This document shows positions 27,975 to 59,705 of a DNA stretch of 64,000 bases, one piece after another; position 1 is the stretch's first letter, and the number at the start of each line of letters is the position of its first letter. Made by a program: the position numbers and the translations under genes. The DNA comes from Minisyncoccota bacterium (GTDB lineage Bacteria; Patescibacteriota; Minisyncoccia; Phycocordibacterales; UBA918). The stretch spans positions 36,846 to 100,845 of the forward strand of contig JALHRC010000002.1 in assembly GCA_022841645.1 (NCBI GenBank), in the 5' to 3' direction. The notes beneath the pieces were generated by a model. It did no database searches. It saw only the letters and a program-made list of their open reading frames with translations, and had not been told where the DNA came from.

Positions 27975-28298
27975 TTAGATCACGTCGATTTTTTGATTAG
28001 TACGCCTCGTTCTTATCCATATAACCATCAAAGCTATAATTGGTAGGATGTAAAATACATTTACGACAAACTTTCTATCAACGCTACAATCAGGACCAAT
28101 GATGCCATTATATGGGTAAAAAGTTGTGTACGGTTTCCACCCAGGTTCTGTGGAGAAGTTAAGACTCCACTGGGTGTTAGTGAATGAAGTACTCCAGTCT
28201 ATATCTCCATTTGGTAGACGTGGAGGAGAACAGCTGTACGTGAGGGAAGGGAGAATAAGAGGCAAAAGCATAATAATCGCCAAGAAAAGTTTTCTCAT
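27975..28298 (-). CDS. Hypothetical small exported/membrane protein (107 aa) in the low-G+C islet
   Basis: N-terminal signal (LFLAIIMLLPLILPSLTYSCS). C-terminal TM (VFYILPIIALMVIWI). SD-like GGGG before the ATG. The local sequence is AT-rich. Confidence 0.45.
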   Translation of the reverse strand: MRKLFLAIIMLLPLILPSLTYSCSPPRLPNGDIDWSTSFTNTQWSLNFSTEPGWKPYTTFYPYNGIIGPDCSVDRKFVVNVFYILPIIALMVIWIRTRRTNQKIDVI

Positions 28299-28612
28299 GC
28301 CCCAATCCTATCACGGTACTTCTGTATGAGGTCATTACAAAGAACAAAGGTGGTGCCAGCCAAAAACTGATACCACCTTATCGTCTTTCCGATTGTCACC
28401 CTGGCTTGCGCGGTTAACGTAGGGTTAACGGACAGATGCATGCTTACTCGGGCCGTTTTTACCTCTACAGACAATCCGTAGCTACCGAAGCCTCCTGACA
28501 AGTGTCTTTATAATAGCTGCTTCTTGCAATACTTCAACGCTGCCTAACAGCAAACGAGGTTCCAATGCCACCAATGACAACTGGCTGCGATTTGTTAAGA
28601 TACACATAAGAT

Positions 28613-29092
28613 ATGAGTTTAGAAAATCCAGAACGGTTCACACCTGAAAAACAGGAACTTCTTCGACTAGAGGCAACAGGTGATTATGTATTTCACGGAT
28701 CAGATAGTGATATAGAGGAATTTGAACCGCGACAAGCACATAACTTTATTGATGGTGAAAACCATCCTGACGGTGATCCAGCAGTCTTTGCTTCTTCTGT
28801 TGCAGAGTATGCAATATTCATGGCGTTAATAAATAAAACTAATTGCCCTAAGGGATATCGATCAGGAGCAGAGGCTACCAACGGAAGGAGTACTTACAGA
28901 GCAACACGAGATACACTTGATCAGTTACAAAATGATGCAGCGGGGTGGGTCTATGTGTTTGATAGAGGTCAATTTAACAGCCGAAAAAGCGAAGGAATAG
29001 AATATACAAGCTCTACCAATGTAAAGCCCCTAGAGAAAATTAGGGTTTCCAGAGTAGATCTTCCCCCAAATATAGATATCATTGAGGAATAA
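28613..29092 (+). CDS. Hypothetical protein (159 aa) in the low-G+C islet
   Basis: ORF with the islet's AT-rich codon usage. No recognisable motif. Confidence 0.45.
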   Translation: MSLENPERFTPEKQELLRLEATGDYVFHGSDSDIEEFEPRQAHNFIDGENHPDGDPAVFASSVAEYAIFMALINKTNCPKGYRSGAEATNGRSTYRATRDTLDQLQNDAAGWVYVFDRGQFNSRKSEGIEYTSSTNVKPLEKIRVSRVDLPPNIDIIEE

Positions 29093-29190
29093 TAGTTCCA
29101 CTCGTCATTACCGACTGGAAGGCAAAATAGGGCTTATTCTAATCAAACGGTCCTTGCTCTGGCTGTTTTGCTGCACGAGAAACTTAAGTC

Positions 29191-29220
29191 ACCACTGTTA
29201 TCATATATGATAACAGTGGT
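29191..29220. repeat. 30-bp perfect palindrome ACCACTGTTATCATATATGATAACAGTGGT
   Basis: Perfect inverted repeat centred on CATATATG, about 90 nt upstream of tRNA-Ala(GGC). Followed by a second small palindrome CAAAAAACTTTTTTG-like at 29224-29237. Confidence 0.6.
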
Positions 29221-29307
29221 CTCAAAAAACTTTTTGTTAGCTTTGTGCTGGCTGTTAATGCTTTTCAACTGCTGACTTATTTCGTATACTGCCCGCGCCG
29301 TTAGCAA

Positions 29308-29380
29308 GGGCCCTTAGCTCATCCGGTAGAGCGCTTCCATGGCATGGAAGAGGTGAGCGGTTCAAGTCCGCTAGGGTCCA
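29308..29380 (+). tRNA. tRNA-Ala (anticodon GGC)
   Basis: 73-nt cloverleaf: acceptor GGGCCCT/AGGGTCC with G3:U70, D-arm GCTC-ATCCGGTA-GAGC, anticodon loop ATGGCAT, T-arm AGCGG-TTCAAGT-CCGCT, discriminator A. No encoded CCA. Confidence 0.9.
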
Positions 29381-29414
29381 CGAGTATATTTCACGGAGCA
29401 AATATTTGTACAAA

Positions 29415-29435
29415 ATACCCCCCAGGGGGTATAAT
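29415..29435 (+). promoter_or_regulatory. CsoR-type operator (inverted repeat ATACCCCC-CA-GGGGGTAT) overlapping a TATAAT -10 box; a TTGTAC -35-like element lies 18 nt upstream
   Basis: 8-bp perfect arms at 29415-29432. TATAAT at 29430-29435. The csoR-like ATG at 29443 sits 7 nt downstream of the -10, implying a leaderless transcript. GC-rich TACCC...GGGTA pseudo-palindromes are the known CsoR operator type. Confidence 0.5.
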
Positions 29436-29442
29436 TGTGTGT

Positions 29443-29706
29443 ATGAAAGAGTCACACAAAAAGCTAGTTCGTCGCCTCAAAATTATCGAAGGGCAAGTAC
29501 GTGGACTGCAAGGCATGATTGAGAAAGACACATATTGTATTGATGTCATCACGCAGACCTCAGCCATCAAGCAAGCTCTTTCAAATATTGAAAATGTACT
29601 CTTGGAAGAACATCTTTCTCACTGTGTAGTTAATCAGATAAAGTCGGGTAACGTAACAAAGCCAGTCGGAGAAATACTACAGGTGTATCGGTTAAAGCGT
29701 AAATAG
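29443..29706 (+). CDS. csoR: CsoR/RcnR-family metal-sensing transcriptional repressor
   Basis: 87-aa all-helical protein. Pattern KKLVRRLKIIEGQVRGLQGMIEKDTYCIDVITQ...LEEHLSHCV with the Cys...His...Cys copper-ligand triad typical of CsoR. The ORF track start 29344 overlaps the tRNA and is rejected. Confidence 0.8.
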   Translation: MKESHKKLVRRLKIIEGQVRGLQGMIEKDTYCIDVITQTSAIKQALSNIENVLLEEHLSHCVVNQIKSGNVTKPVGEILQVYRLKRK

Positions 29707-29707
29707 T

Positions 29708-30256
29708 ATGGAACATAATCACTCAACATCAAGTGCAATAAAAATTCATCACGTAGCAAAAGTAAGTGTGTGGTCATACTGGCCGATCACTACCATATAC
29801 TTGGTGGCGGCACTTATTTCGCTTTATTCGGTACAATTTCACGCCTACCCTGACTATATGTCACACCTTATGGGCTGGGTTCTGATATTCTTTGGGGTCA
29901 TCAAGCTATCCGATGTAGTTGGATTTGCAGAGGGATTTGCAATGTACGATCCACTGGCAAAACGAAACATCGTTTATGCTCAGGTATACCCTTTCTTAGA
30001 GATCACTCTCGGTATTCTCTTTATACTTCAAGTTCTGATTCTACCTGCTACTCTCATCACTTTGTTTATCTATAGTGCTAGCCTTATCGGCGCTTTACAG
30101 TCAATGGTTAAAAAAGAAACCCTGCACTGCGTGTGTCTCGGGACCTACTTCAAACTTCCGCTCTCGACCGTCACCATTATTGAGGCAATCTTTATGATAA
30201 TGATGTGTCTTTGGATGTTAGCAATGTTTAACAGTATGACCATGATGGTTATGTAA
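29708..30256 (+). CDS. Hypothetical integral membrane protein (4-5 TM helices), co-transcribed with csoR; possibly a DoxX/MauE-like or metal-handling membrane protein
   Basis: Start is 2 nt after the csoR stop. Multiple TM helices. Conserved Cys pair (HCVCLGTYF). Confidence 0.55.
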   Translation: MEHNHSTSSAIKIHHVAKVSVWSYWPITTIYLVAALISLYSVQFHAYPDYMSHLMGWVLIFFGVIKLSDVVGFAEGFAMYDPLAKRNIVYAQVYPFLEITLGILFILQVLILPATLITLFIYSASLIGALQSMVKKETLHCVCLGTYFKLPLSTVTIIEAIFMIMMCLWMLAMFNSMTMMVM

Positions 30257-30267
30257 TAAAATAATTT

Positions 30268-30927
30268 ATGAAAAATCAATCAATCGCAATAATTATTGGA
30301 CTCGGAATCTTAGTCGTTGGTGCCGTAGCGTATAGTTTTGGTGCAAATAAGGATACTGATACCAAAATGGGTATGAATATGGGTGATGACGTACCAGTAG
30401 GGATGCACCGTATGCCAGATGGTTCACTAATGGGTAACGCCCCTGCAAACAACGACATGGGTATGATGGGTGGTATGGATCACTCAATGATGATGGTAAA
30501 GAGTGAACGAGAGTTTCTTAAGGGTATGATTCCACACCACCAAGAAGCAGTTGATACTGCCAAGCAGGTGATCGCTCGTGGCGGTTCAACTCCCGAAATC
30601 AAGAAACTAGCTGAAGACATCATCGTGGCACAAGAGAAAGAGATCGCTATGATGAAGGAGTGGTATCAGGCGTGGTACGGGGAAGCATATGTAGCTGATC
30701 CTAAAGACTACAAACCTATGATGCGTGACCTCTCAACTCTCAGGGGAGCTGCTCTAGATAAGGTCTTTCTCGAAGATATGGTTATGCACCACATGGGAGC
30801 AATAATGATGGCACAAAGTGTACAACCATACATAGAAAATCAAGAAATCACAGATCTGACCAAGGCAATTATGGAGACGCAGGCAGCGGAGATAGAATTA
30901 ATGCGACAGATGCTTAAAACCTTGTAA
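30268..30927 (+). CDS. DUF305-family protein with a Met/His-rich (MxxM-type) N-terminal copper-binding region, secreted or membrane-anchored
   Basis: N-terminal TM/signal. The Met-rich stretch MGMNMGDDVPVGMHRMPDGSLMGNAPANNDMGMMGGMDHSMMM. Paired DUF305-like motifs MIPHHQEAVDTAK and MVMHHMGAIMMAQ. Confidence 0.7.
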   Translation: MKNQSIAIIIGLGILVVGAVAYSFGANKDTDTKMGMNMGDDVPVGMHRMPDGSLMGNAPANNDMGMMGGMDHSMMMVKSEREFLKGMIPHHQEAVDTAKQVIARGGSTPEIKKLAEDIIVAQEKEIAMMKEWYQAWYGEAYVADPKDYKPMMRDLSTLRGAALDKVFLEDMVMHHMGAIMMAQSVQPYIENQEITDLTKAIMETQAAEIELMRQMLKTL

Positions 30928-31053
30928 TGATATGGAGTGAATATTCTTTTACAAAATCTGTTGCAAGGTAGGGCACGCTTGATATGTCACCCAAAACTTC
31001 ATTAGATACTCCCTAAACTGGTTCGATAAATTTCCCCTATAGTCCACCGAGAC

Positions 31054-31095
31054 AAACTAAAGGCACACCCATAACAATGGGTGTGCCTTTAGTTT
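31054..31095. terminator. 19-bp perfect-stem hairpin (AAACTAAAGGCACACCCAT aaca ATGGGTGTGCCTTTAGTTT); possible bidirectional terminator or recombination site
   Basis: Read directly from the sequence. Lies 127 nt after the DUF305 gene. The flanks are only moderately T-rich. Confidence 0.4.
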
Positions 31096-31190
31096 AGTAA
31101 GTGACCAATGTCACTTATGGGTCTCGGTGGAAGCCACTGCGATGTTTTCTGTTCATCATAGAGCAGAAAACCGCAAGGGGGGGTCGACAG

Positions 31191-31232
31191 CACTTAGTAG
31201 AATCAGCACGAAGTGCTTGATTCTACTAAGTG
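31191..31232. repeat. 15-bp perfect inverted repeat CACTTAGTAGAATCA...TGATTCTACTAAGTG enclosing an inner GCAC-gaa-GTGC hairpin
   Basis: Read directly from the sequence. Lies in a non-coding stretch at the right edge of the low-G+C region. Confidence 0.3.
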
Positions 31233-31720
31233 ACTGGTGACCACAAGGACCTGCTAAATTCTGAGCAAAGCGAAACAATATAGCTTGGTGACCGTCAAGA
31301 TCAACATCTTGACTTTCTATGGCTTTGTGTAAACATGTATTTGCTGTACCCATTGAGCGGAGTAGAATCATGGATCCAGAGCTCTTGAAGGACATTCCCC
31401 AAGGTACGTTCCGCATCATTCACTGCATGGGGGATGGTCCGCTCGACTACAGCGCCTGCTGTGTCGGGAACTATAGTGAGAGGCGAGAAGCGATTCGAAT
31501 CGCAAGCGACCACAATCGAGGTCGGCGGGAGGCTCAGAGCTCCAGCACGTACTTTGTCTTTGATGACAAGGGCGCGTGCATCCACTAGGGGACAGGGCAG
31601 TTGTGGGGCCGCAGCATTCGCTGCGGCCCTTGCTAGCTTATGCTACTACATACTGAGCGGCGCAAGAACTAACAATGACGACAGAACTGACACAAAACAC
31701 AATGCTATACTGCTAGGTAT

Positions 31721-32005
31721 ATGACATGGCAAAGACAAGAGGCAATTCGCAGCAACCCCGAGAAGATTGTGGGAAGGATTGAGATGGAAGGTACTGGCTC
31801 ATGGAAGGAGCGCTATGAAGGTGTCACCATCGGGCAGGTGCGAAAAAAGCTTGAATACTCGCCGGAACTAAGAGAGCAATTAAAGAATATTAATCCTGAT
31901 GACATGGACGCTATTAAAAGTATAGCTAATAAGATTGGTGAAGATGAGGCTATACTGGCAGCCATTGCTTTTGCCATCAGATCTAAGTTAATTGGGACAA
32001 ACTAA
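31721..32005 (+). CDS. Hypothetical small protein (94 aa)
   Basis: ORF upstream of the atp operon on the same strand. No motif. The overlapping alternative ORFs at 31300-31600 are ambiguous. Confidence 0.3.
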   Translation: MTWQRQEAIRSNPEKIVGRIEMEGTGSWKERYEGVTIGQVRKKLEYSPELREQLKNINPDDMDAIKSIANKIGEDEAILAAIAFAIRSKLIGTN

Positions 32006-42358: not shown

Positions 42359-45300
42359 TTAGAGAAGCACAGGCGTGTGGAGCGAGTCATCTGCCGCTTG
42401 CTTGCGCAAGAGCTTTTTCTGCTCGGCGCGGTAGTAGAGCACGGGCACGAGTACCAAGGTCAGAATCATCGCGAAGGTAAGGCCAAACATAATGGCGAAT
42501 GCCAGCGGGCTCCAGAAATCGGAAATCATTGAGAGCGGAATCATACCCACCACCGTCGTGATGGTGGTGAGCATAATCGGACGGAAGCGCGACACGGCTG
42601 CATCAGCCACTTGGTCAATCAGCAGATTGCTTGTGCCTTCAGAAGCTTTGTGGGTAATCATCGAGTCCATCAGAATAATGGCGTGGTTAATGATCACTCC
42701 GGCGAGCGCGATCACCCCAAGCAGGGACGTGAAGGAGAGCGCAAGCCCCGTCGCCGCGAGGCCAAAGAATACACCAATAAGCGAGTACGGAACAATGACA
42801 AGGAGATAGAGTGAATAGCGAATCGAATTGAATGAGAGCACCAATATGGCGAGCATGAGAAGCAATCCGACCACAAGCGCTATGAACATTTCAGTAAACG
42901 ACTGGTTTACGTTCTCAGCCTCGCCGCCATACGACACCTCGACACCACTCGGTAGCTCGAGCTCAGCATTGCGCGCCCTGAATGCACTTACCACTTCACC
43001 GGCGGCAACGCCAGGAACAGTGTAGGCCGAGACAGTCACTTGTCGTTCCTGGTCTTCACGATTAATCGCCGCACTCGCCGGCGCCAGTGACTCCGAAATG
43101 ACACTACTCAGTGGCACCGTAGAGCCCGTAACGGTGGGCACCGTAAGGCTGCGGAGGGCACTGATCGACACGTTTGGTGTGGCCGTGGTGTCCCCGCTTG
43201 TGCGGTCAATTCCAAGCCGCACGACGACGTCAATGTCTTCGCCATTTTGATTAATGGTGGTTGCTTCAACACCAAACACTGCTGTGCGCAGAATACCTCC
43301 CACCGCCGCTGGGGAAACGCCAAGCGCGCTGGCCTTAGCTTTATCAACGGTCAGTACATACTCAGTCGCGTTACTCTTGCTACTGGCTTCCACGTCACGA
43401 GTTCCTTCGATATCGCGCAAAAGCGCTTCTGATCGGTCTGAGACCAAGAGGAGATCAGACAGGTCGTCGCCACTGAGCTTAATGAAGACTGGTGCACCGG
43501 TAGGTGGACCGTTCTGTTGCTCTGTGATGGTAACGAGACCACCCTTGATGGCCTTGAAGTTCTCGCGGAGAGCGGCCGCCAGATCGATACTCGACTCCTC
43601 ACGATCTTCCTTAAGCGCTACGGTAATGTTGGCAAAGCGGCCGCCAGCATCGGTACTGCCGGTAAAGGCAGAACCTGAACCAGCCGTGGTGGTGAATGAT
43701 TCTATATAGTCCTTCTCGTAGAGCACTTCTTCAACGGCGCGTACGACAAGGTCCGTCTCAGTCACCGGTGTACCCTGCACGGTTTCAATTTCGATGTAGA
43801 TTGAGTCAACGTTCTCAGGTGGGAAGAAAATAACTTGGAGTGTACCGGTGATAGGCAGAGCAAAAGCTAGAATAAGACCAGCAAACATGCTCCACAGAAG
43901 CACCCGCTGCTTACGGCGACTTTCGAGGAAGCGTACGAGTTTCTCCCGGTACCACGCCTGTGCCTTCACGTTGTATTCCTCTTGCATTTTCTCAAAGCGG
44001 TTCGGTGTAGTGTTGCTCGTAAGGTAGATAGCAATCAGTGGCACGAGCCCAAGCGCCACAAAGATAGAGGCAAGGAGCACAAAGATAATCGTGAAGGGGA
44101 TAGACGCGATGAATTCACCCGTCACCCCCGAGAGGAAGAAGAGGGGAGCAAAGACGGCAATGGTGGTCATCGTGCCAGCAATCAGTGGCCACGCATACTC
44201 GCGAATTGATTTCTCAGCAGCGTCCATGGCGTTACCCGTTTTCCGCAGACGGGTGTGAATTGCCTCTGTGACCACGATACCTGAGTCAACCAAGATACCC
44301 ACTGAGAGAATGAGCGCAAAGAGGGAAATGAAGTTGATGGTATTGCCCGAAGCGTAGAGGCCAATAAAAGCAATCACAAACGACAGCGGAATAGAAAGGG
44401 CAGCGACAAGCGACTCGCGCCAACCAATCGTAAGGAGAAGACACAGCACCACGAGTGCTACGGTTTCCAGACCAGCCTTAACAAGACCAGCCAAGTCCTT
44501 GCGCACCTGCTCACCTTGGTCAAATACGACCAGTACCTGTGATTCAGCTAAGAGTCCACCTTCTGCTTGTAACTCAGCGAGCTTTTCGTGTACACGATCA
44601 GTTACCACCGTAACGTCAGTGCCCGCGCGTTTAAAAACGGAGACCGTAAGCGAGGTTTCTGATGGGACACCATCCACTGATACACGAGAAATTGACGACT
44701 CTTTGGTGACCGTATCGTTTACCGTCGCAATGTCGCGCACGTACACGGGCTGTCCCGATGCTGACCGAATGGGTGTATTCTCAATATCTTCGATAGTCGA
44801 TAGTTCACCAGAGAAGCGAACAGCATATTCAATACCATCAGTAGAAATAACGCCTACCGGTACATTCAAGTTTGCTTGGCCAAGAGCAGTAGTTACATCA
44901 GACACACCAAGACCAAAAGCGACTAGCGCTTCCTCGCGGATAAGCACTTGGATTTGTCGCTCACGGGTACCCGAAATCTGCACGTCAGAGACACCCGTGA
45001 CACCGGTAAGCTCATCCTTAATCTGTTCACCGAGCGCAGTGAAGGCGGTAGGCGGGAGATTAGCCGAAATTGAAATAATGTTGATCGGCTGATTGGAAAA
45101 ATCAACTTCCGTTACTATCGGGTCATTGGCATCGGTAGGAAGTTCTCCTTTGGCACTATCAACTGCATCACGTAGTTTTTGAATTGATTCATCAATATCA
45201 GCACTGGCAGCAAATTCAACGCTAATACTCGAAACGTCATCACGTGAGGCCGAAGTGAGTGATTCGATGTCATCAAGATTCGCGATCGCATCTTCGAGCT

Positions 45301-45499
45301 TGATGGTGATAAGCTCTTCAATGTCAGAGGCTGAAGCCCCTGGATACACTGTTGAAACAATTCCCACTGGCACAATCACCTCCGGAAAAGATTCCTTGGG
45401 GATGATGTTTACTGCATAGATGCCCAAGCCCACCAGCGTGAGCATGAGAAGCACACTAAACTGCCGCTTCTCTAAAAAGAATAGCCAAAATGAATGCAT
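42359..45499 (-). CDS. RND-family efflux transporter permease (AcrB/AcrD/AcrF-like, 1046 aa)
   Basis: 12-TM topology with two large periplasmic loops. N-terminal region (FFLEKRQFSVLLMLTLVGLGIYAVNIIPKESFPEV) typical of the ACR_tran family. Confidence 0.9.
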   Translation of the reverse strand: MHSFWLFFLEKRQFSVLLMLTLVGLGIYAVNIIPKESFPEVIVPVGIVSTVYPGASASDIEELITIKLEDAIANLDDIESLTSASRDDVSSISVEFAASADIDESIQKLRDAVDSAKGELPTDANDPIVTEVDFSNQPINIISISANLPPTAFTALGEQIKDELTGVTGVSDVQISGTRERQIQVLIREEALVAFGLGVSDVTTALGQANLNVPVGVISTDGIEYAVRFSGELSTIEDIENTPIRSASGQPVYVRDIATVNDTVTKESSISRVSVDGVPSETSLTVSVFKRAGTDVTVVTDRVHEKLAELQAEGGLLAESQVLVVFDQGEQVRKDLAGLVKAGLETVALVVLCLLLTIGWRESLVAALSIPLSFVIAFIGLYASGNTINFISLFALILSVGILVDSGIVVTEAIHTRLRKTGNAMDAAEKSIREYAWPLIAGTMTTIAVFAPLFFLSGVTGEFIASIPFTIIFVLLASIFVALGLVPLIAIYLTSNTTPNRFEKMQEEYNVKAQAWYREKLVRFLESRRKQRVLLWSMFAGLILAFALPITGTLQVIFFPPENVDSIYIEIETVQGTPVTETDLVVRAVEEVLYEKDYIESFTTTAGSGSAFTGSTDAGGRFANITVALKEDREESSIDLAAALRENFKAIKGGLVTITEQQNGPPTGAPVFIKLSGDDLSDLLLVSDRSEALLRDIEGTRDVEASSKSNATEYVLTVDKAKASALGVSPAAVGGILRTAVFGVEATTINQNGEDIDVVVRLGIDRTSGDTTATPNVSISALRSLTVPTVTGSTVPLSSVISESLAPASAAINREDQERQVTVSAYTVPGVAAGEVVSAFRARNAELELPSGVEVSYGGEAENVNQSFTEMFIALVVGLLLMLAILVLSFNSIRYSLYLLVIVPYSLIGVFFGLAATGLALSFTSLLGVIALAGVIINHAIILMDSMITHKASEGTSNLLIDQVADAAVSRFRPIMLTTITTVVGMIPLSMISDFWSPLAFAIMFGLTFAMILTLVLVPVLYYRAEQKKLLRKQAADDSLHTPVLL

Positions 45500-45510
45500 G
45501 GATGTGAGTG

Positions 45511-47052
45511 TTAGTTGCTCTCGGCGGTTACCGCTTGGCCTTCCTTGAGCCCTCGCGCATCTACCACAATCTGATCTTCAAGGGCAATGCCTTCTTCTAC
45601 AATCACACTTTCACCACTGATGGCTCCTAAGGTAATACTTCGTCCGGAAAGCGTATTCTCATCTGTCACTTTGAAAACCACCGGCCCACTGCCGGTCATC
45701 TTTACTGACGAAAGGGGAATCATGATCTTGGTCTCAGTGCTACTGTTTTCATTTATAAAGAGTACGGTGGCCGTGCTGCCGTTTTGTAGCTCTGAATCAT
45801 CGGCCACACTTACTTTGACGGCAATTTTGCCCGTCGTGGGGTCTACGGCGCCAGCAATCGCCGTTACGGTGCCACTGGCTGTACCATCAATGACAACTTC
45901 ATCGCCAATGGCGAGGTTCGCACTCTCCTCCTGATTGATCGCCGTCGCAATTTCCAGACCATTGTTGTTTGCGACGATGGCCGCCGGCTGCCCAGAGCCC
46001 ACGTATTGTCCGGCCTTAAGATAGAGGGCGTTTACCACGCCACTAATCGGCGAGCGAACGATCGTCTTTTGGTAGGCAGCTTGTGCAGCCTGGAGGCTAC
46101 CAAGCGCAATTTTCACCTGCGCATTAGCGAGCGATACGTCAGCAGAGGTGCCGCCAATGGTTGCTCGCGCTAACGCTTCCTCAGCGTCAGCCAAACCAGT
46201 TTTGGCAGCCTTCAGGGCTTGGAGGGTGGTATTGAGTCGCGCACTCTCCGCTAAGAGACCATTAGTAAGAGAATTTGTAGGTACGCCAAATAGCGTATCA
46301 TTTCTATCTGCATTATTAGTTTGAGCAACAAACAACTCTACGAAGGCAATCGTTCGAGTAACCTGTGTCTCAGCCGTGGCGATTTGGTCGTAAAGATTTT
46401 CGTCTGTCAGGCCATTTATCTGGGTCTGCCATTCAGGAAGTAGTTTTTGATAGGCAACACGTTCAGCATTCAAGACTTGAGCGTTACCATCAATGCGTAA
46501 CCCTGGAACAAAGCTATTTGGGTCGGAGAAAAATGGGTCAATTGATTTCACAATGACTGAACTAACATCAGTTAAGCTGGCCCGAACGGCTGCTTTCGCG
46601 GTATTGCGAGCATTCTCAAGCCCCGTTGACGCACCGCGCACCCCACTATCACTCTGCTTGGCTCCCGCAACCGCAGCTTCGTATGAGCCCTCGGCCTGCA
46701 CCAAGGCAGCCCGCTCTGCACTATTCTCGAGGGTAGCCAACACTTGTCCAGCAGCGACCCGAGCACCGATTTCAGTCGTGACTGACACAACGCGACCACC
46801 GGCCTCCGTCTCGAGACGGGCTTCCGAGATGGCGGTTACCGTGCCTACCGCAGAAAATGAGCTCCCTGAGGCAAGTTCACGAACGCTGGCCACCTCAACG
46901 GTAGTCGCAGCAGGCAAAACCTCGACGACCGGCTCACCACCTGGGCCAAAAAATACTGAGGCAGTAAGCCCAAGTAACAGGATAACAGCAGCAATTCTTA
47001 CCCAAGTTTGTCCCGCGTACTGCTTGTAGAGGGACGTCAACCGTTCACGCAT
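45511..47052 (-). CDS. Efflux RND transporter periplasmic adaptor (membrane fusion protein, HlyD-like), unusually long at 513 aa
   Basis: N-terminal TM. Long Ala/Gln-rich coiled-coil (helical-hairpin) segment. C-terminal beta-barrel region (VVIDGTASGTVTAI...GESVIVEEGIALEDQIVV). Lies immediately upstream of the RND permease. Confidence 0.8.
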   Translation of the reverse strand: MRERLTSLYKQYAGQTWVRIAAVILLLGLTASVFFGPGGEPVVEVLPAATTVEVASVRELASGSSFSAVGTVTAISEARLETEAGGRVVSVTTEIGARVAAGQVLATLENSAERAALVQAEGSYEAAVAGAKQSDSGVRGASTGLENARNTAKAAVRASLTDVSSVIVKSIDPFFSDPNSFVPGLRIDGNAQVLNAERVAYQKLLPEWQTQINGLTDENLYDQIATAETQVTRTIAFVELFVAQTNNADRNDTLFGVPTNSLTNGLLAESARLNTTLQALKAAKTGLADAEEALARATIGGTSADVSLANAQVKIALGSLQAAQAAYQKTIVRSPISGVVNALYLKAGQYVGSGQPAAIVANNNGLEIATAINQEESANLAIGDEVVIDGTASGTVTAIAGAVDPTTGKIAVKVSVADDSELQNGSTATVLFINENSSTETKIMIPLSSVKMTGSGPVVFKVTDENTLSGRSITLGAISGESVIVEEGIALEDQIVVDARGLKEGQAVTAESN

Positions 47053-51416: not shown

Positions 51417-51445
51417 AAAACGCCACCCTTTTAGGGTGGCGTTTT
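51417..51445. terminator. Bidirectional rho-independent terminator (AAAACGCCACCC-tttta-GGGTGGCGTTTT), nested in a larger palindrome
   Basis: Perfect 12-bp stem flanked by A and T runs, between convergent ychF and the giant minus-strand gene. Confidence 0.7.
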
Positions 51446-51476
51446 GGGTGGCGAGATGCCCAACAATGGTACCTCT

Positions 51477-54400
51477 CTACCAGTCGTAGTTAAGTAGGGC
51501 GCGTGTTTGCGGCCCAACTGAGCCTGTTACAGTGAGGCCACGAGCTGCCTGGTACGCTTCTACAGCTTCTGTAGTAGCGTTATCGAAGTGACCTGTTACC
51601 GCTCCCGTGTAGTGACCGAGATCGGTCAAGAGCCACTGCAACGCCTCTACCTCATCGCCAGTAGCTCCTGCAGACAGTAATTGGGTGAAGTTTACTACCC
51701 GAGCAATACCTTGAACCTGGGCGCGCGGGTCACTTGCAATACCGCCCCAATCCGTTGCTGTAAGGTAGAACCACTGACCAATATTATTTTGGAAGTACGC
51801 CCTACCGTTGTAAATGAGGATAAGAACGCCCTCTCCTGTATAGCGTGAAGTTGAGCCGTTAAGTGCGATACGGTGTCCTAGACTATCGAAGTTCCCAAAC
51901 GACCAGCGGTTACCGGCAGCATCGGTTACAAAGCCACCTTGCTGTGGTTCCAAAGTAAGGCTTGTCCCGCCCGAACCACTAATAGACGGTGTGGGGCTAG
52001 TTGCAACTGGCTGCGGCACGTCCTCATTGAGCGGTTCGTCAGGGTCATTACCAATCACAAACCTAGCATCACCATTACTCCTAAGCGTGCTCGCCATATT
52101 TTGGTCAACGCCATTGAGAGCAACTGACTTAACATACAAGTTGCGGTCGGCGTCAGATGAACCACCCCAGGCATCATTGTAGTAGCGTACTACTAGGGTG
52201 CGTTCAGCACTCGTGAAGTCTCCCTTCACGTCAACATAGGTGATTTGCGAACGACGATTCTCTGCAAACACTGATCCGCCACCTATCTTCCTGCCATCAA
52301 GAAGGAGATCATACTGCGGTGGTGACACCCAAATATCTCCAGAGAGCGCGAGGCGCACCGTGTCGCTACCGGCACCAAACACAAGGACTTCAGAATTTGA
52401 TGATGGTGGTAGTTCCTCCTCATCTACAGGAACTGGTGGGGTACTAGTGGGTCCGCTACTACTATTCCAGCGACTACCACTGTAGGTAAACCATTTACCA
52501 TTAGTGTTTTGTGCGTACACTCGACCGCCGTTAGCAATGAGAAGGAGCACACCCGACGCCCCTCTAGTTAACGTGCCGTTGAGTGCAATGCGATGTCCGC
52601 TCGGACCGCTGCGCTCGCTGAATGTCCAGTTACCATGCTGAGAACGCACACTACCACCACTCAGCGGAGAAATTGAGCTGCCGTCTGGCGAAAGGGTTTC
52701 AGGGTCTCCGATTGATGTTCCTGGTGCGTCCGTAACAGCCACTGTCACTTCCTTAGTTGTTACTCCACTTAGATTTGCGCAGGTGACCTTGTAGGTTGTG
52801 CTCTGCAGTGGCGAGACAGTTGCACTGCCGCTCGTGCCAACCAGGGTAAAGCCCGAGGTAGCACATGTCGCAGCATCAGTACTTACCAGTGTGAGCGTAG
52901 TGCTCTGTCCCTTCTGAATACTGGTAGGGTTTGCTGTCAGCGAAGCAGTCGGAAGGGGTATGTTTGGGGTAGTGGTCTTAGTAAGGTAGGTCTCAACACT
53001 CCAACCATCAACGGTGGAGCTATCAAAATCGATTTTCCACCAGTTCTCGCCGTCAGCGACTTGCGAAGCCTCTAGCACTGCGCCGCGCGCGCCGAGTGGC
53101 TGGGTTCCGAGAAGCGAACCAGTCAAACTAGCAATGCTGCGCACATTAAGAACACTAGTTGTTTCGACACGATCGCCTGACTTAAAGAGGGTGCTTACCA
53201 CAGGAACCGACACGGTGACCGTGGTCTCAGCGCTGACCGTGCCACCACCACCAGTGCAGGTCACTTTGTAGGTGGTGGTTTCTGTCGGCATCACCGGAAG
53301 AAGACCACTTGTGCCCGAGACGGTAACTCCCGTGCCGGTACAACTTGTCACATTTTGGGTTACTAAAGTCAGAATGCTAGTCTGACCCCGTAGGATAGAA
53401 GAGGGAGTGGCAGTGAGACTGACTGTACTCACGGTCTCATTTCTTGAAATCACAAAGCTGGCTTCGCCATTTTGGGTAAGGCGCGCCGAGCGATTGAGAT
53501 CGCTGTCATTGAGTGCTAGTGACTTTACGTACAGGTTACGGTCGGTGTCAGATGAGCCCCCCCACGCATCATTATAGAATTGAATGACGAGGGTGTGCGA
53601 CCGGCCGTCACTGAAGTCGCCGTGGACATTGATGTATTCAATCTGGCCAAGCTTTTCATTGGCTGCTACTCGACCACTGCCGATGTTTTTGCCATCAAGC
53701 AGCACATTGAAGCCCGGCAGATCGCCCCACAGGTCACCTGAGAGACCTACCTTCAAAATATCTGAGCCCTCACCAAACTTAGTGGGGTCAGTTGGAACGG
53801 TAGGGGTAGTGGGGGTAGTCGGGGTAGTAGGCTCGGTTGGTGCGGTAGGGGTAGCGGGGGTGCGGGGGTCACCACCATAGTGGGGACGCCAGTCATTATT
53901 TTCCCAGTAGTACCACCAATCCCTCTTCGTGGCCAAAAAGGCCCTTCCTCCATTGAGGATGTAGATGCCGGTACCGTACCCACCACCAGCTGGGTTTCCG
54001 TTGAGATACGTGCGGGTACCCAGATCATTTGTTTCCGTGCCAAAAGTCCACACGCCTTCCGGAGTAGAAACTGAAGTTCCTCCAGGCACAAGGACTGAAC
54101 CATCAGGTGATACAGGGTTAGCACTGAAGCGGATTCGCTTGAGGTCACCAGCAAAGTCAAGTGGCCCACCGGCTCCGGTGCATATAACCATGTAATCTGA
54201 CTGCTTTTTGGGAGTAACCTTTATACTGCCGCTCGTACTATTTACTACAAAATCAGGATCAAGACTTGTTCCCGTACACCTCCGAGCATTTTGACTCGAC
54301 CATGTAAGTGTAACCTGTTCACCATCTACCACCAGAGAACGATCGCTGGTAAGAGTAACTCTGACCGTGGTGGGTGCCATAGGAGCGATGGGTTGTTTTG

Positions 54401-56477
54401 GCACAATGTTAAAGGTTGGTTCCTTGGACATATTAGCGGCATCAGTATATGAAGGTTGCGCAGTCTTAAGCCACGCATAGGCCTTCTTAGCGTTTTCATC
54501 ACCAAGCGTATCAGCAAGCAGCGCCATGCTCATGATTCCAAGCTGACCAAAGTAACCATTGCTCTGCGTCCAGCCGCTGAAACCATTCGAGTCCCAGGCG
54601 ATTCCATGAGCACCCATATCACGCCAACTGGTAAGTCGCTTATATTCACCAGTTGGTTGCCTGGGATTGTTTGGAATATTGTGATTTACACCATCGCGCG
54701 GATTAAAGCCATTGTCAGCATTCATGAAGCGTCCCACATACCAATTCTTTGACCACTCCAGATACGGCTTCACATTGGTAAAGCCAAAGTTATAGGCTTG
54801 TACCAAAGTCGAAAGAAGAAAATCATTCTGCCATGGTGACATCGCTTGATTGTTCCAATAGGCATAACCTAGATTGTACCCGTGAATGTCTCCCTGTAGC
54901 GTAGTACGTGATGCCATCTGACTCTTTAACCACTCAATGTTGTTGTTCGAAATTTTAGTGAAGTAGGTTTTTTCTGGTGAACCATCAGGGTTAGCCCACG
55001 CTGCTTGAATCACTCCACGAAGACCCCAGGCACCGCCACGTATCTCAAAGGCACTTGATACAATAATGCCCTTTTCGTGAAATCGAGCATTTCCATATTC
55101 CTCTCCCGACGGCCACGATGACATAATGTTCCATGAGGCAGCAGCGTTGAGTTGATCAAGCAGATAGCGCTTGCCAGTGAAGAGGTACGGAACAAAATTG
55201 AGACTCGGCTGGTGTGAGCTGTCGGGACCCCAGCCATGGCCATCAGCAGGAAGTTGGGTAGGGCGGCCACTGTTTCGATCGCCCGGTACACCAGCAGGCT
55301 CACCGCGTCCATCAATCCACAACTTAGGGTAGTGATCAGTGTTCAACCAGGTGTTGTTAGCGGCGTCCCAGTAGTGCCAAGTGATGGCAGCAGCACCATT
55401 GGCTTGACCGAGACCCATCTTCGCTGAAATAGGGTGCTGCGTCATGATCCAAGCGGTGTTCCAGAGAGTGTGAACGCCAATGTCTGGACGGCCGCCAGCC
55501 ATTCCCATTGCCTTCGCGATCCAGTTTGCCTCAAATGGCTTATTCCAGTTAGCACTACTGACCGCTTCGTTCATCCGGTTAATGAGACTTTGATCAACCC
55601 CGTTAGTGAGATCATAGTTCGCTACCGCCCCCGTACTGATGATGTAGGGTACGTCACGCTGTACGTTTATCTCGGCCGACGCCGGCTTGCTCCAGACCTC
55701 TTGGTGCCATTGCTGGTACTGGTAGTGGGTGAGGGTTGGGTGACTTACGACAGTTCTACCATCGTTGCTAATCGTGGCCGCATATCTGAGGGTGCCGCCC
55801 GTTGCCGTCATGGCCCGGTCATTGTTAAACATGATGTCAGCCCAGTAGGTACCGTCACTGTACTTTGCGAGGTCGACGACGAGACGCAGTGAGGAGGTGA
55901 CGTAGATGTCGATGCGGCCTTCGGTCACGATGGGTCCTTGGCGCCAGTAGGTGACTTTGCCAGCTGCAAGTTCCCGGGCAAAGATGCTCGCGAGGTCGTA
56001 GGTGAAGGTCCCACCACCTTGGATGGCGATAGTGACGTCCATATCAAGACCGGAGAGGCTCGAAAGAGAAATCGGGGTGCCGCTCTTAGCGGCACTCATG
56101 AGCATGGAAGGATTTGCGGTGTTGGCAGAAAGGGTGGGGGCGACTGCCGAGACGACGCCAAACTTCACCGAACCGTCAGCATGGCGGGTCTTCACGTCAA
56201 TCTGGGCGGGAATGGTGCTGCCGTTCACCTTGAGAGCAACACCACTGTTGCCCCCGAGGTCACCTTCTTTAAAGACCTGGCCGAACTGGACGGGACCAGA
56301 GGGTATGCTGGTGCTCGTAGGGTTTTGGAGGTTCATCCCGACGATGTCAGTACTCCCTGAGGGTTGGGGGACGGAAGGGGCTTTGACCTGGGCGTGGGTG
56401 GTGATAGGAAGAATGAGCGCGCCAGCTAACAGTAGTAGGAAGGGGAGAATAAAAGAGGGGCGAGAAGAAGTAATCAT
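51477..56477 (-). CDS. Giant secreted multidomain protein (about 1666 aa). It has a large N-terminal uncharacterised domain, two CBM-like ~120-aa repeats, Pro/Thr-rich linkers, an SH3b-like domain and a C-terminal PG_binding_1-like domain
   Basis: Signal peptide MITSSRPSFILPFLLLLAGALILPITTHA. The ORF track start 56531 is 18 codons further upstream. Repeats YNDAWGGSSD(T/A)DRNLYVKS(L/V)ALN occur twice. SH3b-like LNVRSIASLTGSLLGTQPLGARGAVL...WWKIDF. C-terminal LQWLLTDLGHYTGAVTGHFDNATTEAVEAYQAARGLTVTG. Confidence 0.85.
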   Translation of the reverse strand: MITSSRPSFILPFLLLLAGALILPITTHAQVKAPSVPQPSGSTDIVGMNLQNPTSTSIPSGPVQFGQVFKEGDLGGNSGVALKVNGSTIPAQIDVKTRHADGSVKFGVVSAVAPTLSANTANPSMLMSAAKSGTPISLSSLSGLDMDVTIAIQGGGTFTYDLASIFARELAAGKVTYWRQGPIVTEGRIDIYVTSSLRLVVDLAKYSDGTYWADIMFNNDRAMTATGGTLRYAATISNDGRTVVSHPTLTHYQYQQWHQEVWSKPASAEINVQRDVPYIISTGAVANYDLTNGVDQSLINRMNEAVSSANWNKPFEANWIAKAMGMAGGRPDIGVHTLWNTAWIMTQHPISAKMGLGQANGAAAITWHYWDAANNTWLNTDHYPKLWIDGRGEPAGVPGDRNSGRPTQLPADGHGWGPDSSHQPSLNFVPYLFTGKRYLLDQLNAAASWNIMSSWPSGEEYGNARFHEKGIIVSSAFEIRGGAWGLRGVIQAAWANPDGSPEKTYFTKISNNNIEWLKSQMASRTTLQGDIHGYNLGYAYWNNQAMSPWQNDFLLSTLVQAYNFGFTNVKPYLEWSKNWYVGRFMNADNGFNPRDGVNHNIPNNPRQPTGEYKRLTSWRDMGAHGIAWDSNGFSGWTQSNGYFGQLGIMSMALLADTLGDENAKKAYAWLKTAQPSYTDAANMSKEPTFNIVPKQPIAPMAPTTVRVTLTSDRSLVVDGEQVTLTWSSQNARRCTGTSLDPDFVVNSTSGSIKVTPKKQSDYMVICTGAGGPLDFAGDLKRIRFSANPVSPDGSVLVPGGTSVSTPEGVWTFGTETNDLGTRTYLNGNPAGGGYGTGIYILNGGRAFLATKRDWWYYWENNDWRPHYGGDPRTPATPTAPTEPTTPTTPTTPTVPTDPTKFGEGSDILKVGLSGDLWGDLPGFNVLLDGKNIGSGRVAANEKLGQIEYINVHGDFSDGRSHTLVIQFYNDAWGGSSDTDRNLYVKSLALNDSDLNRSARLTQNGEASFVISRNETVSTVSLTATPSSILRGQTSILTLVTQNVTSCTGTGVTVSGTSGLLPVMPTETTTYKVTCTGGGGTVSAETTVTVSVPVVSTLFKSGDRVETTSVLNVRSIASLTGSLLGTQPLGARGAVLEASQVADGENWWKIDFDSSTVDGWSVETYLTKTTTPNIPLPTASLTANPTSIQKGQSTTLTLVSTDAATCATSGFTLVGTSGSATVSPLQSTTYKVTCANLSGVTTKEVTVAVTDAPGTSIGDPETLSPDGSSISPLSGGSVRSQHGNWTFSERSGPSGHRIALNGTLTRGASGVLLLIANGGRVYAQNTNGKWFTYSGSRWNSSSGPTSTPPVPVDEEELPPSSNSEVLVFGAGSDTVRLALSGDIWVSPPQYDLLLDGRKIGGGSVFAENRRSQITYVDVKGDFTSAERTLVVRYYNDAWGGSSDADRNLYVKSVALNGVDQNMASTLRSNGDARFVIGNDPDEPLNEDVPQPVATSPTPSISGSGGTSLTLEPQQGGFVTDAAGNRWSFGNFDSLGHRIALNGSTSRYTGEGVLILIYNGRAYFQNNIGQWFYLTATDWGGIASDPRAQVQGIARVVNFTQLLSAGATGDEVEALQWLLTDLGHYTGAVTGHFDNATTEAVEAYQAARGLTVTGSVGPQTRALLNYDW

Positions 56478-56670
56478 GAATATATTTTTAAAGGTAAACT
56501 TTGTACGACAACTTGCGTCCACCACGCACACAAGCTTTTACAGCACGTCTGATTAAATTTTGTAATGTTTCATCAATAACGAACAAGACCTTCCAGGCCT
56601 ATACCTGAAAGTAAGAGTAGCAGGTGAGAGGCTGCTACACACAGCCTTGTCCCCACGTTATGCACAGTGC

Positions 56671-57260: not shown

Positions 57261-59705
57261 ATGCATAAAAAGTTCGACGCGGGTGCCATTGAAAAAAAGT
57301 GGCAAGAAGAATGGTGTGCGAGTGGCACCTACGACGTCGATGAGCGCCGCGGTGAGAAAGAGAAGGAATATGTCTTAGTCGAGTGGCCCTACCCGTCGGG
57401 CAACCTTCATATCGGTCACTGGTACGCCTTCGCCGTACCGGACATCTATGTGCGCTACCGCCGCATGACCGGTAAGCAGGTGATCTACCCTATGGGATTT
57501 GATGCTTTTGGGCTGCCGGCCGAAAATGCCGCTATCAAGCGCAATATAAATCCTCGTACGTGGACCGAGAGCAACATCGAATTTATGAAGGGCCAGCTCG
57601 AGAGCATGGGTAATGCCTTTACCTGGAACAAAACAGCCAGCTCAACCGACCCTGAATACTATCGCTGGACGCAGTGGATGTTTACGCAATTTTTTGAAAA
57701 GGGGATCGCCTATCGTGGAAAAGGCGTGGTGAATTGGTGTCCCGGATGCAATACCGTTATCGCCAACGAACAGGTGCTCACTGACGGCACCTGTGAACGC
57801 TCTGGAGACCTGATTGAAAAACGAGAGATGCCACAATGGATGCTCCGGATCACCGACTACGCCGACCGTCTCATCGACGATCTCGATGCCCTCGATTGGC
57901 CCGAACATATCAAAGAGGCACAACGACAGTGGATTGGCAGAAGTCGCGGTGCTGAGATCGATTTTAAGTTAAAAATCGGAAAGGAGGAATTAAATAATGA
58001 GGTAGTCACCGTGTTTACCACCCGACCTGACACGCTCTGCGGAGCCACCTTTTTAGTACTGGCTCCCGAGCACCCACTGCTAAATGCAAATCATTTGCAT
58101 ATCGGAAACTGGGCTGAGGTAGAGGCCTACGTTGCTGCCTCTAAACAAAAAGATGAGCAGGATCGCCTCGACGCGACCAAGGAGAAGACAGGCGTAAAAC
58201 TTGAAGGGATTACCGCCATTAATCCTAGTAGTGGCGAGAAGATTCCCGTTTTTATCGCTGACTACGTACTAAGTACCTACGGAACAGGTGCCATTATGGC
58301 TGTTCCGGCACACGATGAGCGTGACTTTGTATTTGCTGGTAAATTTAACCTTCGTGAAATTGAAGTGGTAGAGCCCCAAGAAAAGTTGGGTGACGAATTA
58401 CATATTAGAGAAGGTAGACATAGAAAATGCTGGTCAGGACCAGGAATTTTAAAAAATTCTGGCGAATTTGATGGGATGGATTCTGAAGTCGCCAAGGAAG
58501 CGATCACGAAGAAGGTGGGTGGTCGGATGAGTAACACCTACCGTCTACGTGATTGGTCGATTGGCCGCCAACGCTACTGGGGCGTGCCGATTCCAATTGT
58601 GTATGACCCAGAAGGGAAGGCACATCCCGTACCCAAGGAGCATTTGCCATGGCTCCTTCCTGAAGATGTTGACTTCACTCCTACCGGTGAGGCGCCGCTC
58701 GCTAAAAGCGCGACACTAAGAGAGCGCACTGAAGAGATTTTTGGCGCGGGCTGGACCCCTGAAGTTGAGACCATGGACACGTTTGTTGATTCTTCATGGT
58801 ATTTCCTCCGCTACGTCGACAATCACGACGACACATCGCTTTCTAGTCTCACCGCGCAAAAGGACTGGCTACCAGTCGACATCTACTTTGGCGGTGCCGA
58901 GCACACCACTATGCACCTCCTGTACTCACGCTTTTGGCAGAAGGCACTCTTTGACCTTGGTCTTGCCGCCCACCCCGAACCATACAAGAAGCGCATCAAT
59001 CGCGGCCTCATCCTTGGCCCCGATGGAAATAAGATGAGCAAGAGTAAGGGCAATGTCATCGACCCAGATGAACAAGTAAAGCTCGTGGGTGCTGACACCG
59101 TGAAAATGTACCTGGCCTTTATGGGTCCCTACGAAGGCAACAATTACCCGTGGGATATGGGTGGCATTGCTGGGCTACGTCGCTTTCTTGAGCGCGTCTA
59201 TGGTCTTACTGAGAACATTGTGGGCGTTGAAAGTGAGGGAGTCACGCGGCAGCTCCATAAAACTATCAAAAAAGTTGGAGAGGATGTCGTACAGTTTAAA
59301 TTTAACACCGCAGTATCGGCGATGATGATTTTTGTAAACTATGCCGAAAAAGTGGGTCTCACGACGTCCACCCTCGACCTCTTCCTGCGGACCCTAGCAC
59401 CCTTTGCCCCGCACCTCACCGAAGAGCTGTGGCATGAGCGAGGGCATACAACTTCCATCCATGAGGAGTCATTCCCGGTCTATGACGAAGCGCTCGCCGT
59501 CGATACCGAAATCACGCTCGGAGTGCAGGTAAACGGCAAGCTGCGTGGGACTATTTCCGTCTCCCCTGACGCTAGTGAGGCCGAGGTGCTCAAGGCGGCG
59601 CTTGCTGAGACGTCCATCGCTGGCCGCATCGGAGCAGGGGGGCCGACCAAGGTTATTTACGTGCCCGGGAGGATTTTAAACCTCATCGCCCCTGAGGGGG
59701 GATAA
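57261..59705 (+). CDS. leuS: Leucine--tRNA ligase
   Basis: HIGH (HIGHWYAF) and KMSKS (KMSKSKGN) motifs. Editing-domain insertion. Bacterial LeuS length of 814 aa. Confidence 0.95.
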   Translation: MHKKFDAGAIEKKWQEEWCASGTYDVDERRGEKEKEYVLVEWPYPSGNLHIGHWYAFAVPDIYVRYRRMTGKQVIYPMGFDAFGLPAENAAIKRNINPRTWTESNIEFMKGQLESMGNAFTWNKTASSTDPEYYRWTQWMFTQFFEKGIAYRGKGVVNWCPGCNTVIANEQVLTDGTCERSGDLIEKREMPQWMLRITDYADRLIDDLDALDWPEHIKEAQRQWIGRSRGAEIDFKLKIGKEELNNEVVTVFTTRPDTLCGATFLVLAPEHPLLNANHLHIGNWAEVEAYVAASKQKDEQDRLDATKEKTGVKLEGITAINPSSGEKIPVFIADYVLSTYGTGAIMAVPAHDERDFVFAGKFNLREIEVVEPQEKLGDELHIREGRHRKCWSGPGILKNSGEFDGMDSEVAKEAITKKVGGRMSNTYRLRDWSIGRQRYWGVPIPIVYDPEGKAHPVPKEHLPWLLPEDVDFTPTGEAPLAKSATLRERTEEIFGAGWTPEVETMDTFVDSSWYFLRYVDNHDDTSLSSLTAQKDWLPVDIYFGGAEHTTMHLLYSRFWQKALFDLGLAAHPEPYKKRINRGLILGPDGNKMSKSKGNVIDPDEQVKLVGADTVKMYLAFMGPYEGNNYPWDMGGIAGLRRFLERVYGLTENIVGVESEGVTRQLHKTIKKVGEDVVQFKFNTAVSAMMIFVNYAEKVGLTTSTLDLFLRTLAPFAPHLTEELWHERGHTTSIHEESFPVYDEALAVDTEITLGVQVNGKLRGTISVSPDASEAEVLKAALAETSIAGRIGAGGPTKVIYVPGRILNLIAPEGG

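Follow-up and report, generated by a model that had tools for sequence, protein, structure and literature searches.

The gene and its product

The stretch of DNA analyzed here (64,000 nucleotides of contig JALHRC010000002.1, assembly GCA_022841645.1, positions 36,846 to 100,845 of the forward strand; hereafter the window) encodes a giant modular protein with an N-terminal module of catalytic type and a C-terminal peptidoglycan-binding domain. The gene is located at 51477..56477 on the minus strand and codes for 1666 amino acids plus the stop codon (51477–51479). The open reading frame (ORF) covers 51477..56531 (-) and would give 1684 amino acids from a GTG codon or 1666 from the ATG at 56477; in the ORF list, no neighboring ORF is longer. 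The initial annotation, made from the letters of the sequence, had described a secreted multi-modular protein of 1666 residues, and this description has stood. In fact, the same 1666-aa product has been called independently in a public assembly (Logan SRR28154519), and the exact protein has been found in three contigs from at least two samples, one NCBI contig being 109 kb long. In a collection of 15 billion proteins, its cluster at 90% identity has a single member. The N-terminus (residues 1–29, 56391..56477 (-)), MITSSRPS-FILPFLLLLAGALILPI-TTHA/QV with the slash at the cleavage site, reads by eye as a putative Sec-type signal peptide, and its hydrophobic stretch and A-x-A/Q site align with the N-termini of relatives. 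Three ORFs on the plus strand inside the gene (55434–55892, 55938–56360, and 56002–56556) were rejected and taken as antisense by-products of the long ORF. Just 3′ of the stop codon, between it and the convergent ychF gene, there are two copies of a 12-bp tandem repeat, TTTAGGGTGGCG (51430–51453).

Fold and conserved residues of the N-terminal module

Directly after the signal peptide begins one single unit of 670 amino acids (residues 30–700, 54378..56390 (-)), which belongs to an unnamed family and is called here the module. A central region of about 500 residues had previously been singled out as having no nameable family. The absence of a family match was confirmed, the module of the window protein having no match in Pfam, NCBIfam, or PDB sequences; the region itself is actually the C-terminal two thirds of this larger unit. 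An AlphaFold model of the module, obtained with the family alignment as input, reached a pLDDT of 94.2 and a pTM of 0.95. In this model, the first 245 residues are rich in β-strands and are followed by about 12 long helices. The domain order is read as a RIFT barrel (approximately residues 44–129, 56091..56348 (-), strands 15–100 of the model, with the motifs FGQVF, Q.DVKT, and PDGS), a β-sandwich (approximately residues 146–274, 55656..56042 (-), strands 117–245 of the model), and an all-α sub-domain read as an (α/α)6 toroid (approximately residues 276–689, 54411..55652 (-)). A Foldseek comparison of the unassigned region had been proposed in the initial annotation, and it has been informative: the top eight matches in the PDB are all PcRGLX, with a probability of 1.0 and E-values from 8e-7 (5xqg) to 8e-6. 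PcRGLX is an exo-rhamnogalacturonan lyase of polysaccharide lyase (PL) family 26, with PDB entries 5XQ3, 5XQG, and 5XQO (Kunishige et al., 2018, FEBS Lett 592:1378, as cited in PMC13501991). The next matches are also (α/α)6 enzymes, from the glycoside hydrolase (GH) families GH78, GH105, GH88, GH76, and GH116, from PL27, and from the AGE epimerases. At the level of profiles, the first 80 residues or so of some relatives, and of a phage homolog (gp39, see below), exceed the cut-off of Pfam PF19501 (PcRGLX_1st, RIFT barrel), the only one of the three PcRGLX Pfam domains ever detected in the module family.

The conservation of the module would also be enzyme-like. In an alignment of 49 family members with 24–46% identity, phage gp39 included, 12 columns are invariant (Q92, S103, G181, N219, M324, G328, R330, H422, G435, R480, W484, and R487), and at least 92% of the sequences share another four residues (Y288, D332, Y431, and D552). 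The copy in the window keeps all 16 positions. Invariant R330, H422, R480, W484, and R487 all fall in the all-α sub-domain, as do the four near-invariant residues. Uronate lyases rely on Arg, His, and Tyr arranged on an α-toroid. The conserved residues of these three types would fit a lyase, and β-elimination is mildly favored over hydrolysis.

The module family in exopolysaccharide loci

The module belongs to a very large family. A word-indexed search returned 130 homologs, the best of them 44–46% identical, and most are stand-alone proteins of about 700 amino acids with their own signal peptides. An exhaustive search with a hidden Markov model (HMM), built as a clean profile of 48 sequences, found 5,747 cluster representatives (clusters at 50% identity) at E ≤ 1e-3 and 2,760 at E ≤ 1e-30; in many of these the module is embedded in proteins of 1000–2250 amino acids. 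The window protein scores 850 bits against this profile, over profile positions 25–690. The genomic context was obtained by scanning the GTDB species, each represented by one genome, with 10 close sequences as query; this gave 249 relatives, and the best 79 loci were retrieved. These best 79 are overwhelmingly from Acetobacteraceae (Roseomonas, Falsiroseomonas, Roseococcus, Acidiphilium, Humitalea, and others); members farther removed are found in the Burkholderiales, for instance in Massilia and Herbaspirillum. By clustering of neighboring ORFs, genes for exopolysaccharide (EPS) were found beside the module in at least 37 of 71 loci. The recurrent neighbors include GT4 glycosyltransferases (29 loci), a Wzy_C/DUF5935 protein (14 loci), a Wzx-type flippase, an AsnB-type amidotransferase, an Acetyltransf_6 protein, and the exosortase EpsH. 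In two loci (L075 and L076) the module lies in the middle of an operon. Four neighbors exceed the curated cut-offs of NCBIfam equivalog models: exosortase A (XrtA), PrsT, the response regulator of the PEP-CTERM box, and the O-ligase associated with exosortase A (PEP_O_lig_1). In its main lineage, the module is thus a component of XrtA/PEP-CTERM exopolysaccharide loci.

Other family members are linked to secretion or binding domains. Many have a tail of the RTX or serralysin-C type, a signal for type I secretion, and in a local HMM census 23 of the top 141 representatives had CBM60 joined to the module, in one to six copies. A PG_binding_1-type tail was present in eight of these 141, including one protein (P0351) with nearly the architecture of the window protein. 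Proteobacterial members do not have peptidoglycan-binding domains; they sit in EPS loci or carry RTX/CBM60 tails. No description of the module family was found in the literature searched on PL26/PcRGLX, on YetA and the RIFT barrel, on Patescibacteria glycanases, or on EBPR siphovirus.

A full-length homolog is also carried by a phage. Protein gp39 of EBPR siphovirus 1 (JF412302), from phosphorus-removal sludge, is 26% identical to the module over 82% coverage (E 2e-33). The gene directly after it, gp40, is annotated as a glycosyl hydrolase, and Pfam finds only an fn3 domain in its product. Both genes are located between terminase and head genes (L081, 8914–13344). Two phage proteins in BFVD share the fold of the module as well.

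These data bear on the possibility that the N-terminal module is a non-catalytic, lectin-like head and that the protein does no more than stick the cell to a partner coated with polysaccharide. An adhesin of this kind would suit the many binding and spacer modules of the protein, the absence of any known catalytic activity in the family, and the frequency of giant surface proteins in Patescibacteria, such as the product of a 2049-aa ORF in the window. It is nevertheless very improbable, given that three Arg, one His, and one Trp are kept invariant at such low identities, the phage copy included, that the (α/α)6 toroid is overwhelmingly an enzyme scaffold, and that stand-alone versions of about 700 amino acids inside EPS operons make little sense as adhesins.

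Copies in Patescibacteria and their history

The leucyl-tRNA synthetase (LeuRS) of the window is 70–77% identical to proteins of Candidatus Parcubacteria, Paceibacteria, and Kaiserbacteria, an identity that assigns the window to the Patescibacteria (Paceibacteria-type). The premise of the initial annotation that the organism could be an epibiont is reasonable because of this placement. The synthetase itself (57261–59705 (+)) has 814 amino acids, and many of its closest relatives have about 940, with an extra NUDIX domain (PF00293).

Four Patescibacteria metagenome-assembled genomes (MAGs) have genes for some of the nearest relatives of the module, with 41–45% identity. These genes lie among housekeeping genes and code for proteins of 841–1629 amino acids, including one tandem pair; in none of the four loci are there EPS genes near the module. 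An SH3-like unit, 35–61% identical to that of the window protein, follows the module directly in all six Patescibacteria relatives from these MAGs, and PG_binding_1 closes five of the six. Several of them have Ig-like, X, LamG, or β-helix units. The tandem paralogs (1256 and 1600 amino acids) are encoded in the Parcubacteria MAG contig JAKFXN010000002 (L006) at 7920–11690 and 11845–16647; both end in Laminin_G_3 and PG_binding_1, and the second has an extra right-handed β-helix. The fusion of SH3b-like and PG_binding_1 anchors to the module is a Patescibacteria-specific design, and is among the new elements of this protein.

The surroundings of the gene in the window are similar. Its neighbors are YchF, SppA, LeuRS, and an RND pump, and no XrtA, PrsT, PrsR, PEP_O_lig, GT4, or Wzx genes were found around it, so that the copy in the window does not lie in an XrtA/PEP-CTERM locus. 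The remaining genes of the window are typical Patescibacteria housekeeping genes (UvrABC, TGT, F-ATPase, Ddl, and YceG/MltG). The RND efflux pair consists of a membrane-fusion protein (45511–47052) and an ACR_tran pump (42359–45499), together 42359–47052 (-). It is unexpected on a Patescibacteria contig, RND pumps being associated with diderm envelopes.

In a neighbor-joining tree, the Patescibacteria copies form a clade (bootstrap 99/100) with four other sequences (P0001-3 and P0004), P0001-3 being from peat Acetobacteraceae MAGs with a GC content of 0.63. This clade nests within the Acetobacteraceae diversity, with Burkholderiales outside, and monophyly of the Patescibacteria copies alone was not supported in the tree (bootstrap 6/100). 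A recent horizontal transfer into the genome of the window was considered and rejected, as the GC of the gene (0.51–0.535) equals that of the window. More generally, the Patescibacteria copies span GC values of 0.35–0.51, each matching its own contig, and any transfer must therefore be old. The direction from Proteobacteria to Patescibacteria is more parsimonious, though not proven.

Binding and spacer modules

The C-terminal part of the protein is built from a small number of repeated units. The first Ig-like unit (residues 703–771, 54165..54371 (-)), which contains Cys, matches units 2 and 3 by self-BLAST (E 1e-12 and 1e-7). It is followed by a first X unit (residues 789–868, 53874..54113 (-)), an all-β unit of about 80 amino acids with no assigned family, by a Pro/Thr linker (residues 871–899, 53781..53867 (-)), and by the CBM60 module a (residues 901–1013, 53439..53777 (-); Pfam PF16841, E 2e-25, best stretch 908–998). 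Next come the Ig-like unit 2 (residues 1015–1090, 53208..53435 (-)), which is 48% identical to unit 3, and an SH3b-like unit (residues 1098–1169, 52971..53186 (-)). Comparison of fragments of the protein with each other then delimits the Ig-like unit 3 (residues 1177–1249, 52731..52949 (-)), X unit 2 (residues 1262–1342, 52452..52694 (-)), and, beyond CBM60 module b (residues 1367–1478, 52044..52379 (-); second Pfam stretch, about 1370–1468), X unit 3 (residues 1508–1577, 51747..51956 (-)). The protein ends in a PG_binding_1 domain (residues 1606–1662, 51492..51662 (-); Pfam PF01471, E 2e-17). Two repeats with the motif YNDAWGG..DRNLYVKS, each after a duplicated segment, had been recognized from the sequence. 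Both repeats are CBM60 modules (89.4 bits against a Pfam cut-off of 28.2, over two stretches), 53% identical and with the motif NDAWGG...DRNLYV in each. The segment before each of them corresponds to an Ig-like plus an X unit, and in fact the whole cassette of Ig-like unit, X unit, linker, and CBM60 is duplicated (703–1013 versus 1177–1478), with 36% identity and z = 28 against shuffles.

The linker is indeed encoded by short tandem repeats, as the initial annotation held. Tandem Repeats Finder detects very short arrays of 9 bp × 2.9 copies at 53803–53828 (94% matches) and of 8 bp × 2.6 copies at 53848–53869. The slipped-strand variation in linker length that had been suggested from them was rejected as unsupported: the arrays have fewer than three copies, the protein is identical on the three contigs, which come from at least two samples, and no variant of the giant protein at ≥90% identity exists in the 15-billion-protein collection.

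The X and Ig-like units have relatives elsewhere, even though isolated units of either kind gave no Pfam match at E ≤ 10. The three X units are 33–44% identical to each other, and an AlphaFold model from a six-copy alignment (pLDDT 53) was too poor for a fold search. The unit occurs also twice in the locus L005 and three times in P0243, an Acetobacteraceae MAG protein of 860 amino acids with a GH5 cellulase-type domain, one CBM60, and a C-terminal tail. The X unit is hence common to secreted glycanases of Acetobacteraceae and to the Patescibacteria protein. Units related to the Ig-like unit 1 are found in L005, L006, and P0266. Searches of the whole protein against NCBIfam, PDB sequences, and PHROG detect only the peptidoglycan-binding end and the Ig-like units; PHROG 2155, a virion structural protein, matches three stretches, the best being 1014–1098 (Ig-like unit 2, E 4e-14).

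The CBM60 and X units that are most similar to those of the window are carried by Proteobacteria, including Acetobacteraceae, on GH5, GH16, and β-helix proteins. CBM60 modules are reported to bind xylan, galactan, and cellulose (Montanier et al., 2010), and this raises the question of whether the protein might be a nutritional glycanase, held at the surface and acting on an environmental or plant polysaccharide (xylan-, pectin-, or β-glucan-like) whose sugars feed a fermentative cell, with no specific host target. The annotation of CBM60 as xylan-binding, the presence of similar CBM60 units on GH5 and GH16 glucanases, the pectin (rhamnogalacturonan) lyase as nearest fold, and the location of the gene among housekeeping genes, with no host-interaction genes adjoining, would all agree with such a role. 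It appears rather unlikely all the same, since the relatives of the module are found in EPS biosynthesis loci and not in loci for polysaccharide utilization or pectin degradation, neither the window nor any of the four Patescibacteria loci has a sugar transporter or downstream catabolic gene adjoining it, and the phage homolog fits an attack on a bacterial surface polymer better than the use of plant biomass. Were the module an ordinary environmental glycanase, the finding would be reduced to a new family of carbohydrate-active enzymes (CAZymes) within a common multimodular layout.

Another question is the role of the modules for binding to the cell wall. The PG_binding_1-like C-terminus predicted in the initial annotation is clear, with 63.6 bits against a Pfam cut-off of 23 and a full-length match (1–57/57). 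Its matches among PDB sequences (4lpq, 6tci, and 7rum) are a protein of the ErfK/YbiS/YcfS/YnhG family (4lpq), SleB, and an endolysin, and endolysin families of PHROG match this end of the protein too. The SH3b-like domain had been predicted as well, and it holds only in part: Pfam SH3_3 (PF08239) at 1108–1164 stays below its cut-off (14.7 bits versus 27, E 0.036), whereas the unit is conserved in the Patescibacteria relatives and, by sequence comparison alone, is 41% identical (E 3e-13) to repeats of P0251, a protein with Pfam domains that include PF08239 and amidase_2. Since PG_binding_1 and SH3b-like units are typical targeting modules of endolysins and autolysins, and PG_binding_1 is present in six of the seven copies of the Patescibacteria lineage examined (that of the window included), the protein might itself be a cell-wall enzyme, that is, an autolysin or a hydrolase of wall-linked glycopolymers directed to the wall of the producer or of a Gram-positive host. 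This is improbable, in view of the proteobacterial members, which have no peptidoglycan-binding domains and are located in EPS loci or bear RTX/CBM60 tails, and of the absence in Pfam, NCBIfam, PDB, and Foldseek searches of any similarity to known families of muramidases, amidases, glucosaminidases, or lytic transglycosylases. The wall-binding modules of the initial annotation are supported, firmly for PG_binding_1 and tentatively for the SH3b-like unit; they more probably tether the enzyme to the peptidoglycan of its own producer. The cell wall as target, which the same annotation had proposed, is replaced here by exopolysaccharide as the likelier one, because the relatives of the module occur in XrtA/PEP-CTERM loci, as CBM60/RTX fusions, and in a phage.

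Other features of the window

The window encodes additional surface or envelope proteins. The 2049-aa ORF mentioned above (378–6527 (+)) would code for a second giant protein, which has no Pfam match at E ≤ 1e-4. A capsule synthesis protein of the PGA_cap/CapA type is encoded at 12804–13964 (+). The gene at 17890–20400 (+) codes for a protein of 836 amino acids that has a Big_13 Ig-like domain and a bacterial TSP3 repeat. In addition, the GC content falls to 0.42–0.45 at 27750–32000, compared with about 0.51 elsewhere in the window. This region holds several short ORFs and two tRNA-Ala genes (27750–27823 (-), anticodon TGC, and 29308–29381 (+), anticodon GGC), and may be an inserted element.

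Proposed function

The reading favored here, with a probability of roughly 0.55, is that the protein is a surface-anchored glycan depolymerase acting on bacterial exopolysaccharide. In this model, the protein would be exported by Sec, and PG_binding_1 and the SH3b-like unit would fix it to peptidoglycan, so that its catalytic head would project outward. The wall bound would most likely be that of the producer, because the wall of Patescibacteria is presumably exposed and the genes for Ddl and YceG/MltG in the window show that the cell makes peptidoglycan; in a diderm partner, the outer membrane would shield this layer. The Ig-like units and Pro/Thr linkers would act as spacers, and the polymer would be gripped by the two CBM60 modules, perhaps also by the three X units, and cleaved by the N-terminal module. 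The target would most likely be a bacterial exopolysaccharide such as XrtA/PEP-CTERM loci produce, because the proteobacterial members of the family sit in these loci or are secreted as RTX/CBM60 fusions. The purpose might be access through the matrix to the surface of a neighbor or host, the harvest of sugars, or both, in a way comparable to a phage depolymerase. The phage homolog gp39 is counted in favor of this reading, as a sign that the module is used by an outside attacker.

Several points weigh against this proposal. No member of the family has a known activity. The global TM-score between the module and PcRGLX is only 0.27–0.35, with 8–10% identity; the module profile matched no chain among PDB sequences at E ≤ 10 except through the RTX tails of some members, and the window protein has no PF19501 match at E ≤ 1. 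Because of the low TM-score and of the lack of a match to PDB sequences, the modeled module would be a distant structural relative of PL26 and not a member of that family. The conserved Asp residues might permit hydrolysis, and the position within EPS loci would also suit a biosynthetic or chain-trimming role. The ligands ascribed to CBM60 leave a low probability to a plant or environmental glycan as the substrate.

A more far-reaching version can be offered only tentatively, as it is rather doubtful. According to it, the module would found a new PL (or GH) family specific for XrtA/PEP-CTERM exopolysaccharides, which Patescibacteria captured from Acetobacteraceae-like bacteria along with CBM60 and X units and welded to their own peptidoglycan anchors to give an organelle that pierces the matrix of the host. 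If true, the gene would point to the host range (EPS-producing Alphaproteobacteria) of a Paceibacteria lineage without a known host.

The depolymerase reading is of biological significance for several reasons. It provides a testable function, and a fold predicted with high confidence, for a very large unnamed family (about 5,700 clusters at 50% identity). This family is moreover a recurrent unannotated part of XrtA/PEP-CTERM loci, and little is known of the polymers of these loci and of the enzymes that process them. The module occurs in EPS producers, in phage, and in Patescibacteria, as would be expected if attackers borrowed a matrix-cutting enzyme from producers. To our knowledge, the hosts and attachment mechanisms of Patescibacteria are mostly unknown outside Saccharibacteria, and a surface-anchored enzyme related to proteins of Acetobacteraceae EPS loci would be a lead on how partners are accessed and on which partners should be sought.

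Comparison with known systems

The closest structural parallel is PcRGLX, the only strong fold match in the PDB, and the domain order read for the module is that implied by the naming of the Pfam PcRGLX domains. On the other hand, PcRGLX is a fungal protein of about 880 amino acids that acts on pectin, whereas the module family is bacterial or phage-borne and is linked to EPS loci. In terms of context, the parallel is with matrix-cleaving enzymes encoded within or beside EPS loci, such as AlgL (for alginate), PslG, and BcsZ. Another example is RbmB of Vibrio cholerae (PMC11637428). The proteobacterial relatives of the module are likewise secreted proteins of glycan-cleaving type inside EPS biosynthesis operons; however, their fold and family are unrelated to those of AlgL, PslG, BcsZ, and RbmB, and the copy in the window lies outside any EPS locus and is fused to wall-binding modules. 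Phage tailspike and tail-fiber depolymerases are also enzymes by which an outside agent cuts the capsule or EPS of its host, and a siphovirus carries the full-length homolog of the module. The classical depolymerases, in contrast, are trimeric β-helix proteins, whereas the module is predicted to be an α-toroid and its phage homologs are uncharacterized. The general architecture resembles that of wall-anchored CAZymes of monoderm bacteria (anchored by SLH, LysM, or PG_binding domains), which combine a head, carbohydrate-binding modules, Ig-like spacers, and a C-terminal wall anchor, and the PG_binding_1 domain itself is like those of endolysins, SleB, and ErfK/YbiS-family proteins. It differs from these CAZymes in having an uncharacterized catalytic family and in belonging to an ultra-small member of the Patescibacteria, and the combination of the SH3b-like and PG_binding_1 anchor with this module occurs in only eight of the 141 top representatives. 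The layout of head, binding modules, spacers, and wall anchor was already known; the distribution of the module over EPS producers, phage, and Patescibacteria is new.

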